This document shows positions 2,325-12,847 of a stretch of DNA of 64,000 bases, one piece after another. The DNA is taken from NCBI GenBank assembly GCA_041485085.1, contig JBGPIX010000001.1:8564-72563 (forward strand), read 5' to 3'. The notes under the pieces are model-generated. The model was not told where the DNA came from. It made no database searches and saw only the letters and a program-made list of their open reading frames with translations. Positions within the stretch are counted from its first letter, which is position 1. Every line of letters starts with the position of its first letter. Position numbers and translations under genes: made by a program. Source of the DNA: Candidatus Acidiferrum sp. (GTDB taxonomy: Bacteria > Acidobacteriota > Terriglobia > Acidiferrales > UBA7541).

Positions 2325-5300
2325 CTATGGGAGCAGTCCGAATACCGTAATCACGCCCTGGCCTCCCACGTAGACTTTCCCGTTGGCAACCGTGGGCACG
2401 GTGAATTTAACAGCGGGACCCGCGACACCAGAGCCGGTGGTCGGACTGCTGAAGAGCAGGTTAGATACGTTGGAAGCGTCGTATGCATTCAAGACAGCGT
2501 TGCCACCAGTAGGCCAGCCGGAGAGATCAAGGACCCAGACAATACCATTAGTAGTGCCGCTGGCAGAGACGGCTGGAATTGCGCCACGGGCAGGATACGT
2601 GTTGGTCGAGACGGCGAACTGCGGAGCCGAGATATTGCCGTTCGCTATTTTGAACTGGCTAAGAGGATAGTTTTGCCCCGTGGTATATATGTTTCCGTTC
2701 CAGTAAGCGGGCACGCCATAATTGCCGCCGTCCAACTGGGTGGTATTGGGCGGTGGGACAGGGATTACTTCTTGAACGTCCAGGTTACTCCCGGAATTGA
2801 ATCTGCCCATATTAGTTTGATCCAAAAGGAAAAGGACCGCGATCTTGCCTGTCGCGAGCGCAAGATGAGGATGCGCGGCAGATCCGACAGAGTCCGGAAG
2901 AATGACGACACCTGCAGAGCCCAAGTCGACGTCGTTAGCATCCAAAGTGGAACGATTGAAAGGAGTGAACCAATCAAGCAATAACCCTGTGGGACTAATC
3001 TTCAGGGTGGATTCGGAGAAGTTCTTGGTTCCGTCGTAAGCACCGTTGCCAGTTGAGGCGTAGAGATTTCCACTGGCATCCGCCGCAGGACCTGCGCCAC
3101 CATCCCAAATCGAGGCACCATTGTTTCCATTGGTGGGATCCGAGGTAGAGAAGACAAACTTCCGCGCCAGTGTGGTTGGATCATACCCGAACAACCAGCC
3201 AAACCAAGGGGAAATGTCACCGTGAGAGCCAAAGGCAATGTAAATGGTGCCGTTGACGAACAATAGCCCCGGCCGGTTGAAATGGCGAAGTGAGACAAAG
3301 TTGGGAGCGGAGATAACGACGGGGCCACCAAATTTATCCAACCCCGTCAGAAGATCCAGGGCATGTAGCCGGCTAATGTAGCATGGCGAACCCGTAGAAC
3401 AGCCTGAACCCACTGTCTCCTTGGTCTTGGCCACAAGATAGATCGTATTGGTCGCCAAATCAATTACGGGCGTGGAAGTAATGCCGATCTCGGGAAATAC
3501 GTCGTCAGTGGCAGCACTAGAAGTCCCCGCGGACGTATCTTGCCAAGACATGGTGGTGACGCCGGACTTGAGGAAAGAGGTCTTCCAAAGTTGAGTACAA
3601 GAAGGAGAATCGGCGTCAAAAGCGTAAACGCTGTCATGCTCGGTGGCCAGGAACACCACATTGCGTGTCGTCGAGGCCACGGTCAGATTGGCTACATACA
3701 GCGGTTGAGCGTAGACGTAGCCATCCACTGGGCAGGAGAACAGCCGCCCGAACGTCGATGAGCTCAGGGTCGAGGGTAACAGGGCGTACTCTTTCAAGGT
3801 CTGGCCGGTCCGCGCATTATCGTAGTGATAAGTCAAGATACCAGAGAGATCCGTAACGGCGATCGTCACGGAGGCGTTCACAGATGCGTTTGAGACACTC
3901 GCTGCAGTGACAGTGTGCTGTCCTGCTTGAGTTCCGGGGGTGAACAACCCGGAGGTGGAGACGGTTCCAGTGGTGCTGTTGCCGCCATTATTGCCGTCAA
4001 CCATCCAGTTGACGCCAAGGTTTTGAGAATCGTTAAAGACCGTCGCTGTGAACTGCTGGGATTGGGAGAACGTTACGGCGGCACGTGCCGGCGCAACCGC
4101 CACACTCAAGGTGCCTTGGGTAACGGTGATAGTGGAGGTGGCAGACTTCGTGTTATCAGCCACTGAAGTGGCTTTGAGCGTAACGGTCGGAGGACTTGGC
4201 AAGGTCGCAGGCGCCGAGTAGCTGACAGTCGTCGCGGTAACGGCGGAAAGCATGCCGCAAGCAGTTCCAGTGCAACCAGCGCCCGAGAGAGACCATGTTA
4301 CGCCCTTGTTCTGGGTGTCATTTTGCAGCGTTGCCGTGAAGCCCTGACTTGCACCGCCGCTGGTAACACTGGCCGTTGGCGGTGCCACGCTTACCGATAT
4401 GGGTGGAGGGGGCGCGCTGCCCGCGGCTCGGAAGGCGACCGCTTGCATGATCCAAGAGCCGGCTGGGGAATCAGGCGCGGTGGCAACGTAGCTCCCCGCC
4501 GAGGCCGCCGCGCGGTCCTCCAAAATGTCGCCGTCCGGGCTGGTGATTACGCGACTTGTGAAGCCAACACCAGGCCCTGTCGTGGTGGTCTGCACCAGAT
4601 TTACGCCGACAATGAGATCGTTGGCGCTAGTGGTTGTGACGGCTCCGCTGCTGGACAGCACGCTGCTTCCTTGCGCCGCCGCAGACGCATCCAAGGCATT
4701 AACGGGATCGACGTTGCTGTATTCAGCGATACGAATGTCAGGGGCATTCGCAGCAGTATTGAAGGTGACCGAGACCACGTTGGCATTTGCCACAGCGGAA
4801 GCAATGTTCTTGGCATAGTAGATGGACTGCGTCGCGATACCGACTTGCACGGTCGGTCCGACCGCGAGGGTGTAAGCATTCCCAGCGGAATCCGTTACCG
4901 AGCTAATTTGGGCTGCTGAGTCGTTCCAGCCCACAGCCACTACGTTTAAGTCACCAGCGTTCTGCGGAGCGGAGAACGGAATTGTAATGGTCGTGGCGCT
5001 TGGGTGTGGTACGGCAAAGTTGCTCTGTATGAAGCCAATTGGAGCCCCCGACGAGGTGACCGTGAAATTCACGCCGTTACTTGCCAAACCTCCCACCGTC
5101 ACGACGACGTTCCCGGTTGATGCTCCTGCCGGCACTGGTGCAGAGATGTTCGTGTCGTTCCAAATCGTGGGAGTTGCGGCTATACCGTTAAAGGTGACCG
5201 TGCTGGTGCCCTGACTCGACCCAAAGTTACTGCCGCTGATGGTGACGGAAGTGCCGGCAGGACCGCCAGTTGGGTTCACCGTGGTAATAGCCGGTGGGGC

Positions 5301-11089: not shown

Positions 11090-11105
11090 AGCACTCTGCC
11101 TTCCA
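11090..11105 (-). promoter_or_regulatory. sigma54 -24/-12 promoter candidate for the giant surface protein gene
   Basis: TGGAAGGCAGAGTGCT (GG-N10-GC); a perfect IHF consensus lies just upstream. Confidence 0.55.
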
Positions 11106-11118
11106 AACCGAGGTATGT

Positions 11119-11144
11119 CAAACCATTGATTTAAAAAGAGTTTA
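11119..11144. promoter_or_regulatory. IHF-like site / ~25-bp dyad
   Basis: CAAACCATTGATTTAAAAAGAGTTTA; the reverse complement of 11119-11131 is AATCAATGGTTTG, matching WATCAANNNNTTR. Confidence 0.6.
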
Positions 11145-11390
11145 ATGGACTCCAAGGTGCCCATGTAATGGCTTTGGGAACGTCAATGGTATCATTGTGC
11201 AGTTCGCTTCCCACAGGAACACGCGGTCTCAGGGTAGCAATCGCTTGAAGTAGTCCATGATGAGGAACGGCCCACACTCCAAAGCTTTGAGAGAATCTGC
11301 CAAGAGACAAATGGACAGGCAAGGGGAGGGGAACAACGATTTGAAACACTGCTCGATAAACACTTCCCCAATAGCGGTGAGTAGGGAACC

Positions 11391-11558
11391 CTACTTTATC
11401 GCTTGTTCGTTCGGGTCTACGCTCTGGCTGGAAGCAGGGACGGTGCCTCGCAGTACCACAAGTACTCGACGCAGCAGCACACCAGTCAGGATCAGCACTA
11501 GGCCGACGAGCAAGAGTCCCGAGGTCTCGGGAAGTCTTGATATAGATGTGAGAATCAT
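11391..11558 (-). CDS. 55-aa microprotein consisting mostly of a PEP-CTERM-like sorting signal
   Basis: Below the ORF-track cutoff. MILTSISRLPETSGLLLVGLVLILTGVLLRRVLVVLRGTVPASSQSVDPNEQAIK*: LPE motif, TM helix, RR. A sigma54 promoter lies immediately upstream. In-frame GTG at 11564; no SD sequence. Confidence 0.65.
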   Translation of the reverse strand: MILTSISRLPETSGLLLVGLVLILTGVLLRRVLVVLRGTVPASSQSVDPNEQAIK

Positions 11559-11575
11559 ATGCACACAGGAGCTAG

Positions 11576-11591
11576 TGCAACTGGGCGACCA
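11576..11591 (-). promoter_or_regulatory. sigma54 -24/-12 promoter candidate for the microprotein
   Basis: TGGTCGCCCAGTTGCA; 25-bp dyad TAAACCACTTAAAATGAATAAGTTA at 11607-11631. Confidence 0.6.
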
Positions 11592-11791
11592 AAAGCAAGT
11601 ATGAGGTAAACCACTTAAAATGAATAAGTTAACTCGGCATTAAACTCTGAAACTGGAGGGGATTGGGAAACAGAGTAGTGTAATCATGCAGTATTTTTCC
11701 AAGACTCGCACATTGTTCTCTACGCTTTCACAGACAGGGGGCAGACACTCTGCCCTCAACGCCAGGCCACCCCGTATGGGTGCCTCTCGAG

Positions 11792-12847
11792 TTATTCGAC
11801 TCTCCGGAGCCAACCCTCTCTCCAATAGTGGTAAATGGCCCTGGGGCAGAGCTTGTGATAGTCCGCGGCGCAGGCCGAGCCATCCAAGATGATGCAGGAA
11901 GACTTCATACGCAGCATCTTGCCGGTTTTTTCATCCACGATTTGGTTGACCCGCTTCAAAACACGGTAGGTCCCCCCGCAATACTTGAGCATTTCGGAGT
12001 CGAAGAGAAGGCCGCGGTTACGGTTCCTCTTGTCCAGAGTCGCGAAAATTTCCTGCCTGGATTTGACCCGAACGAATTCGCCGGGCTGGAAGTTCAACTC
12101 GCCGGAGGGAGATGCGGCCGGCAAGGCCTGGACGTGTGGATATTGCACGCCCTTTCGAATGGATTGAAACTTGTTGAACACCTCGACGAGCAAGACGCGA
12201 AACACATCGAACGTGCCCAGAAGGGCCTCCAGGAGTTTCTCGCCTTTCGAGTCGCCGAGTCCGCGGTTCAGATTTCTGGAGCGAATGTCGAGGACGTATT
12301 GCCAGAGATTCCAGGACGGGAGATCCGCGCTAAATTCACGTAGCTCGGTGGCTTGGCAGGAATAGATATCTTCTCCGGTGGCTGGGTCCTTGCCTTTTTC
12401 GCTGGCACGCTGGAGTATCTCTAAGAGTGGAAGTGTCGCTCCACTTGCCAACGCGACAGAAGTCTTCGGCGCGGCCGAACCGGACTCACCGATTCGAGAG
12501 TCCGCAACAAATGCAGAGTCAACTCTCTTCAACCAGGCTTCATGCCAAAAAATCAGGCAGCCAGCATCGCATCCACCATGCGCCTGGCCGTCGCATCGAA
12601 CACCAGTCAGATGCACGGCATTTTTTACGGTGCGCATGTTCCAGGCCTGAATGTTGTCGCAGGTTTTGTGCGCCACTTTGTACACACGAAATCGTTTTCC
12701 GCAGTACTGGAGCATCTCCGGCATGAACGGCATGGCATTCCGCCTGCCGTGCTCATCCAGCGTGGCGAGGACCTCCTCCTGCGAACGCACTTCAACAGCT
12801 TCGCCTGCCAGCAAATTAAGCTGATACTCCGGATTCTTCGACCCCAT
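11792..12847 (-). CDS. Hypothetical protein with an internally duplicated Cys-rich domain
   Basis: Two copies of GE.V.V.S..E..ATLD....F..EML.YCG...RV.K...G..C...H..C......W.E.WL.RV. Confidence 0.85.
   Translation of the reverse strand: MGSKNPEYQLNLLAGEAVEVRSQEEVLATLDEHGRRNAMPFMPEMLQYCGKRFRVYKVAHKTCDNIQAWNMRTVKNAVHLTGVRCDGQAHGGCDAGCLIFWHEAWLKRVDSAFVADSRIGESGSAAPKTSVALASGATLPLLEILQRASEKGKDPATGEDIYSCQATELREFSADLPSWNLWQYVLDIRSRNLNRGLGDSKGEKLLEALLGTFDVFRVLLVEVFNKFQSIRKGVQYPHVQALPAASPSGELNFQPGEFVRVKSRQEIFATLDKRNRNRGLLFDSEMLKYCGGTYRVLKRVNQIVDEKTGKMLRMKSSCIILDGSACAADYHKLCPRAIYHYWREGWLRRVE

Follow-up and report, generated by a model that had tools for sequence, protein, structure and literature searches.

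A Conserved Gene for a Tiny Membrane Protein

What can a protein-sorting signal do when no protein is attached to it? The question is raised by a 64-kb window (contig JBGPIX010000001.1, positions 8,564 to 72,563), i.e., the whole stretch of Candidatus Acidoferrum DNA analyzed here. A short open reading frame (micro-ORF) on its minus strand had been described in an initial annotation, made from the sequence alone, as a stand-alone PEP-CTERM-like peptide with its own sigma-54 promoter. The frame is a genuine, conserved and unannotated gene for a tiny membrane protein. For its function, we favor at somewhat better than even chances that of a minimal exosortase substrate or modulator, induced through sigma-54 and orphaned in this genome. 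In the following, handles beginning with G or L denote genomes or loci of relatives (G000 being the genome of the window), g37 is a related genus and f1 the family to which the window belongs.

The claimed succession of motif, membrane helix and basic pair is present (Table 1), with a mean Kyte-Doolittle hydropathy of 2.4 in the best 19-residue stretch. The reported absence of a signal peptide and of a cargo domain was borne out; the micro-protein had no Pfam or NCBIfam match, even at an E-value of 10. The start first proposed, an ATG at 11558 (codon 3), would yield 55 aa. Judging from the orthologues, the GTG is the likelier start codon, because GTG-CAT is common to G073, L060 and ten closely related g37 copies, whereas the ATG reads ATC in G073. 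A truncated 3′ end of a longer, decayed gene was also considered; this was excluded by the conserved start together with an in-frame stop in G073 two codons 5′ of the GTG (one codon stands between stop and start).

Searching relatives with a single sequence gave no homologue, and the family emerged only through a DNA search of the genus, which returned one short conserved stretch in G073, exactly the first 34 codons. The G073 copy has 57 codons from its GTG, with the same length and stop position. It lies directly downstream of a 77%-identical orthologue of the 351-aa gene that precedes the micro-ORF in the window, and its 3′ neighbor is the orthologue of the giant gene that follows it. A three-sequence profile then detected 21 members among 301 genomes of the same GTDB family (a 300-genome draw plus G000), and further members were found in a 100-genome draw of the genus. 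Thirty-one called proteins, all “hypothetical”, were retrieved from a set of 5.8 billion proteins, and 103 representatives from a library of 1.84 billion. About 100 of the latter are 36–119 aa long, with the match starting at or near the true start, and share the stand-alone layout; those looked up are all without a name. Members in Candidatus Acidoferrum and sister genera are stand-alone proteins of 50–58 aa, in which an N-tail of 10 residues precedes an [LI]P[ED][TP] motif; a single membrane helix, RR or RK and a tail of ~22 residues follow. Each carrier genome has one such gene, and the signal was found in no larger protein.

The family is under purifying selection. Pairwise dN/dS (the ratio of non-synonymous to synonymous substitution rates) is 0.09–0.33 for the whole gene, 0.02–0.27 for codons 1–34 and 0.14–0.56 for the tail; one pair, for example, differs by 12 synonymous changes and a single non-synonymous one. 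In the ten g37 copies, variable sites at the first, second and third codon positions number 0/0/7, 7/1/20 and 16/10/22 in three parts of the gene. Codons 1–12 are those with seven variable third positions and none at the first or second, i.e., the N-tail is strictly conserved as protein. The initial annotation had named missing syntenic homologues and missing purifying selection as grounds for discarding the frame; the homologues are syntenic and the ratios low. Rfam gave no match, and ESM Atlas returned nothing usable (score 0.78).

Relation to PEP-CTERM Sorting Signals

Profile comparison indicates that the core of the micro-protein is PEP-CTERM-related, as had been claimed. Alignment with local PEP-CTERM tails by hhalign gave a probability of 96.9% (E-value = 1.3e-10), the motif, the Gly and the RR of both sides falling in register, values to be read with the reservation that the compared tails were chosen as matches to the same profile and that membrane helices inflate such scores. 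Evidence independent of this comparison comes from four orthologues that keep Pro-Glu-Pro (L094, L096, L045, L049) and pass TIGR02595 with 18.3–21.4 bits (cut-off 16). Additionally, the top-ranked NCBIfam families across members are PEP-CTERM families, and the best matches of the family profile across the class, outside the family itself, are canonical PEP-CTERM C-termini in reading frames of 236–302 aa.

The likeness to the PEP-CTERM domain (TIGR02595/PF07589) lies in a Glu-centered Pro motif, a Gly-containing helix and a basic cluster in the same register. Helix and basic cluster are present in the window copy and conserved in all members. The motif occurs as PET, PDT, PEP, PES, AEP, TEP and SES; constant across the library is the Glu, replaced by Asp in one clade and flanked by Pro on at least one side, and the near-invariant Pro-Glu-Pro of the domain is Pro-Glu-Thr in the window copy. 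In contrast to the usual domain, that of the micro-protein starts at residue 11 of 50–58 aa and is followed by 20–24 residues past the basic cluster; most members have PET, PDT, PES or xEP, and each genome has one copy rather than a paralogous family. Genome-wide scans with the PEP-CTERM models gave no match from the window protein. They gave no other PEP-CTERM-like signal in the 85%-complete genome either, in line with the claim that the micro-protein is the sole sorting-signal-like sequence found in its locus. A sortase signal of the LPXTG type was tried and rejected: no conserved Gly follows the Thr, and LPXTG_anchor matched three of 22 members at an E-value of only 0.07.

A Sigma-54 Promoter Module at the Start Codon

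The micro-ORF is preceded by what alignment identifies as a conserved sigma-54 promoter module (P1). Its TGG-N8-TTGCA pattern alone is not above chance, with seven sites in the window against 4.6 expected, and the promoter is accepted from its conservation across orthologues, not from the window site alone. Specifically, all 21 orthologues inspected have a TTTGG-N9-TGC element 56–57 nt 5′ of the LPxT codons, and the start codon (mostly GTG, ATG in some) follows the -12 GC by 12–15 nt in all members. Farther upstream, the GGAA and TTCC columns of a dyad (consensus GGAA-N27-TTCC) are conserved in 14 aligned promoters drawn from several genera. The dyad is centered ~118 nt 5′ of the predicted transcription start and is a candidate site for an enhancer-binding protein. 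Between dyad and -24 box lies an A/T-rich element similar to a site for integration host factor (IHF), conserved in position and in its TTA(C) core. The IHF consensus is WATCAA-N4-TTR, which the window copy resembles weakly. The sigma-54 promoter and dyad reported directly in front of the gene thus stand.

Sigma-54 transcripts usually start 12 nt after the C of the -12 GC. Given the distance of 12–15 nt to the start codon, the leader would measure 0–4 nt; for the window, the transcription start is predicted at ~11565, and the mRNA, as initially suggested, would be leaderless or near-leaderless with GTG initiation. No Shine-Dalgarno sequence fits between the -12 GC and the start codon.

PEP-CTERM genes of Proteobacteria are likewise transcribed singly, each preceded by a long intergenic region in which an activator motif and a sigma-54 site are found (Haft 2006, PMC1569441), and in Aquincola a PEP-CTERM gene reportedly depends on RpoN (PMC9850573). 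With the PrsR-PrsK module, the micro-ORF shares the order of activator site (here putative), spacer, -24 GG / -12 GC and a monocistronic gene of PEP-CTERM type. It differs in its putative activator motif, a GGAA-N27-TTCC dyad instead of a 17-mer ending in TTTACA, and in its far shorter leader, the start codon lying 12–15 nt past the GC; in the proteobacterial set the start codon lies on average 71 nt, and at minimum 23, past the end of the 17-nt sigma-54 motif (Haft 2006, PMC1569441). The genome encodes at least 20 activators of NtrC type, none of its proteins reaching the PrsR cut-off (best score 432 bits, cut-off 502.6).

A separate IHF-like and sigma-54 site was found elsewhere in the genome (contig C5, 28302-28400, minus strand; nhmmer E-value = 0.002), with an ATG ~10 nt past its -12 GC and a gene product with a signal-peptide-like N-terminus. 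This organism may commonly have sigma-54 promoters that directly abut start codons.

Co-occurrence with a Divergent Exosortase

Classical exosortases are present in 191 of the 301 family genomes, and carriers of the micro-protein stood out in the same search by weak exosortase matches. These proved to be a distinct protein of 311–334 aa (L068-L072; L103 9396-10394). It passes TIGR04178 only, with no named subtype above cut-off, and its Cys, Arg and His, which are catalytic in exosortases, are invariant. It has no EpsI domain and is encoded outside loci for extracellular polysaccharide (EPS). Pfam Exosortase_EpsH misses at least the G073 protein. By these model matches it forms a previously unclassified subfamily, like XrtA and other named exosortases in passing TIGR04178 and in its Cys, Arg and His, unlike them in subtype, in the missing EpsI and in being almost confined to one acidobacterial family: it occurs in four of 47 genomes of the family as opposed to one of 243 elsewhere in the class. 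The micro-protein is likewise nearly confined to family f1.

The two genes co-occur. In the family draw, both / micro-protein only / exosortase only / neither were counted in 17/5/5/~273 genomes (Fisher p = 3e-19), within g37 in 11/1/0/7 (p = 1.6e-4) and in the Acidoferrum genus draw in 5/5/4/87 (p = 3e-4), a statistical link from tests that ignore phylogeny. Seventeen of the 22 carriers of the family draw thus have the exosortase in the same genome. The counts of 191/301, 22/301 and “neither” take in four genomes flagged as unpublished (G158, G263, G264, G319), which are not among the micro-protein members or the divergent-exosortase carriers that are named by handle. In three g37 genomes checked, divergent exosortase and micro-protein are accompanied by no classical PEP-CTERM match. 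The proposed exosortase link finds support in co-occurrence with a divergent subfamily, within two genera separately, but it is not obligatory. The exosortase gene has no neighbor conserved across genera. No copy of the promoter module lies beside it; beside classical PEP-CTERM genes, matches to the module are weak only.

Deletion of the Exosortase in the Genome of the Window

The 85%-complete assembly of G000 has no PF09721 match, no TIGR04178 match above cut-off, no divergent exosortase and no PEP-CTERM domain. The divergent exosortase has truly been deleted. Contigs C466 (about 3011-3603) and C227 (end) overlap by ~100 nt and are colinear with the G073 region; because they overlap end to end, an assembly gap does not explain the loss. 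Missing here is ~1.4 kb of the G073 sequence (L103 8914-10327), which covers all exosortase codons but the last ~22; most of the adjacent amino-acid permease gene is missing too. The remaining 3′ stub still encodes the C-terminal residues of the enzyme. The XrtA-EpsI gene of G073 lies in an island without counterpart at the syntenic site of G000 contig C8. The window copy of the micro-protein gene is consequently an orphan, whose present role, if any, would be independent of an exosortase.

Proposed Function and Alternatives

According to the function we favor, the micro-protein would be a single-pass membrane protein corresponding to a PEP-CTERM domain stripped of signal peptide and cargo, with a short tail added. 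By the positive-inside rule, N-tail and LPET would lie at the outer face of the inner membrane, and RR with the tail of ~24 residues in the cytoplasm; this N-out/C-in orientation is that of a normal PEP-CTERM anchor after Sec export. The gene would be silent until an enhancer-binding protein at GGAA-N27-TTCC activates sigma-54 RNA polymerase at TGG-N8-TTGCA, assisted by an IHF-like bend, and the transcript, beginning ~0–4 nt from the start codon, would be translated without a leader or nearly so. A second copy of the promoter module (P2, described below) would drive the adjacent giant gene and co-induce it with the micro-protein. The micro-protein would then be recognized by an exosortase-family transpeptidase, chiefly of the co-occurring divergent subfamily. 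It could be a minimal substrate, cut at the Glu motif so that a peptide of ~12 residues is freed or transferred and a helix-tail stub is left, or a competing pseudo-substrate that tunes the enzyme.

A number of observations weigh against this function. The window copy, with its Pro-Glu-Thr, lies below both the TIGR02595 and the PF07589 cut-offs and gives no match at an E-value of 10; scoring against the PEP-CTERM models, a check proposed at the outset, thus succeeded for four orthologues and failed for the copy in question. Its motif is not C-terminal, standing at residue 11 with 24 residues past the RR, and leaderless GTG initiation is an assumption. Neither XrtA nor a PEP-CTERM protein was found in G000, and the divergent exosortase is deleted there, with micro-ORF and whole promoter intact. 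The divergent exosortase is unaccompanied by the micro-protein in five genomes, G066, G081 and G338 (92–95% complete) have the micro-protein without any exosortase signature, and G346 and G119 have classical XrtA only. The two genes are never adjacent, being ~95 kb apart in g37. To these are added the reservations stated above for the hhalign score and the Fisher tests.

These points lead to the main rival, which we regard as possible and clearly less probable: a small membrane protein derived from a PEP-CTERM tail and working independently of any exosortase, for example by modulating a sensor kinase or the polysaccharide machinery in the manner of MgrB or MgtU. Co-occurrence would then reflect shared ancestry and a shared regulon, with no enzyme-substrate relation. 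The intact orphan gene and promoter argue for such a role, as do the intact copies in G066, G081, G338 and G000, the lack of adjacency, and the place that the Acidoferrum gene keeps in one glycan locus. Additionally, selection acts on the tail and far more strongly on the N-tail, parts that a mere cleavage signal would not need. The micro-protein resembles MgrB and MgtU in size, in having one helix, in being expressed tightly and conditionally and in usually escaping gene callers, but there is no sequence relation (MgtU E-value = 0.5, one member only), and those proteins are not derived from sorting signals. The rival has to face, however, that the Glu motif, the Gly nine residues on and the basic cluster keep the PEP-CTERM register across ~100 clusters, that co-occurrence is observed independently in two genera, and that the three g37 genomes checked have the exosortase and no other candidate substrate.

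A stronger form of the favored function, which we hold only tentatively and consider rather doubtful, is a dedicated two-part module in Acidoferrum and relatives, made of an unclassified exosortase whose only substrate is the micro-protein of 50–58 aa. If this were true, a ~12-residue N-terminal peptide would be released or transferred outside, or a helix-tail stub left inside, and exosortase chemistry, controlled through sigma-54, would be used for signaling or regulation instead of protein sorting. What exosortases do chemically is still unproven because the substrates they have in nature are large, many in number and difficult to work with. A conserved, single-copy, essentially bare sorting signal of ~55 residues would be smaller than any other natural substrate known for such tests, especially in the checked genomes, in which the micro-protein is the sole candidate substrate of the co-occurring exosortase; mass spectrometry could then show the cleavage site, the acceptor and the rules of recognition. 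Apart from this, ~100 unannotated micro-protein clusters are added to soil Acidobacteria, together with a conserved sigma-54 module whose start codon lies at the predicted transcription start.

The initial annotation had also offered the word relic. This is rejected for the family, and it is possible for the copy in the window, since the divergent exosortase is deleted in this genome and no other was found. That the copy was recently orphaned and is heading to decay, with the family functional elsewhere, is in our view unlikely. Apart from the exosortase deletion with its recognizable 3′ stub and the failure to find XrtA or a PEP-CTERM protein in G000, such decay would agree with 14 synonymous to 19 non-synonymous changes in the window lineage, as against 12:8 and 12:6 in its sisters. 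But this excess of non-synonymous changes is not significant, poorly polarized and made of conservative changes, a weak hint of relaxed selection; XrtA may be unassembled in a genome that is 85% complete, and the ORF with its start and stop is undamaged, as are the dyad, the IHF-like element and the -24/-12 element. Very improbable, finally, is that the frame is no protein gene at all but belongs to the giant gene as a conserved 5′ leader, RNA element or upstream ORF, or is a hydrophobic peptide resembling a type I toxin: it is short, hydrophobic and followed by a large gene from which no clear terminator separates it, and one member weakly matches Hok/Gef (E-value = 0.034), but substitutions are three-periodic with low dN/dS, neighbors vary by clade and the g37 gene is monocistronic, the giant gene probably has a promoter of its own, Rfam gave no match, and tight sigma-54 control with vertical, syntenic inheritance is unlike type I toxins.

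The Second Promoter Module and the Surrounding Locus

Table 1. Coordinates of the micro-protein gene, its predicted promoter elements and its neighbors in the window.
Feature	Position	Strand	Basis or remark
Micro-protein gene	11391-11564	minus	57 codons + stop, GTG start at 11564
N-tail, 10 residues	11535-11564	minus	
LPET motif	11523-11534	minus	motif begins at residue 11
Hydrophobic helix, codons 15-31 (17 residues, central Gly)	11472-11522	minus	
RR	11466-11471	minus	
Hydrophilic tail, 24 residues	11394-11465	minus	
Predicted sigma-54 -24/-12 element TGG-N8-TTGCA (TGGTCGCCCAGTTGCA), promoter P1	11576-11591	minus	
A/T-rich IHF-like element, between dyad and -24 box	11606-11625	minus	family pattern WWTNMA-N4-TTAC
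Upstream dyad (TTGGAAA...N...TTTCCCAA; family consensus GGAA-N27-TTCC), candidate activator site	11663-11702	minus	14-promoter alignment
Predicted second promoter module P2	11090-11212	minus	nhmmer with family promoter profile, E-value = 7.5e-10
P2, dyad	11176-11212	minus	
P2, consensus IHF site	11117-11132	minus	
P2, TGG	11103-11105	minus	
P2, GC	11091-11092	minus	
Giant IPT/TIG-repeat protein gene, 2823 aa	2325-10796	minus	Pfam TIG in 15 stretches
351-aa Cys-rich protein gene, upstream neighbor and synteny marker	11792-12847	minus	

Module P2 lies between the micro-ORF and the giant gene, ~285 nt 5′ of the ATG of the latter. It was detected with an nhmmer profile of the family promoters, used in place of an unspecific regular-expression scan for dyad and -24/-12. 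Its match to that profile marks it as a paralogue of P1, and it is conserved in G073 and in L060, a further Acidoferrum contig, within an otherwise unalignable spacer. P2 probably drives the giant gene. With a promoter of its own for the giant gene, micro-ORF and giant gene would be separate units, probably co-induced, and the duplicated module would tie the micro-protein to a giant adhesin-like protein and to the polysaccharide locus.

The giant gene that had been noted next to the micro-ORF is the one with TIG repeats (Table 1), and its orthologues lie downstream of the micro-ORF in G073, G338 and L060. Neighborhoods vary by clade. In Acidoferrum clade A (the window, G073, G338 and L060), the micro-ORF stands between the 351-aa gene and the giant TIG gene. 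In clade B (G003, G346 and G311) it stands between a gene of DUF4910 type, assigned by similarity, upstream and a multi-pass membrane protein without Pfam match downstream. In genus g37 it is flanked by a divergent gene similar to radical-SAM methylthiotransferases upstream and a convergent TPR lipoprotein gene downstream, and is therefore monocistronic. From this comparison, the conserved unit is the promoter plus the micro-ORF and not any neighbor. The idea that the micro-protein might be a membrane acceptor for the giant protein is weakened by the same data, as the giant gene adjoins the micro-ORF in one Acidoferrum clade only and the g37 gene is monocistronic.

In Acidoferrum the micro-ORF keeps within 5–14 kb of the 351-aa gene, with homologues at this distance in G003, G113, G066 and G081. 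The 351-aa Cys-rich protein, which has no Pfam or NCBIfam match, is itself duplicated; its homologues were found in 16 of 100 Acidoferrum genomes, in five of them within ~14 kb of the micro-ORF.

A polysaccharide locus occupies the rest of the window and also holds a Wzm/Wzt transporter and sugar-tailoring genes. Its earlier assignment as an EPS locus of XrtA type is supported by genes whose best NCBIfam matches are to families associated with XrtA/PEP-CTERM (TIGR03013, 03027, 03007, 03015, 03018, 03019, 03088, 03108, 03097, 03098, 03099 and 03006). Five of these are above the curated cut-off (03013, 03019, 03097, 03098 and 03006) and the others below it.

Finally, one locus of the survey concerns a public label. 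L059 (DATHIB010000164.1) is titled “Candidatus Limnocylindria bacterium”, yet it falls in the GTDB genus of the Acidoferrum contigs and carries an orthologous locus; the label is probably wrong.

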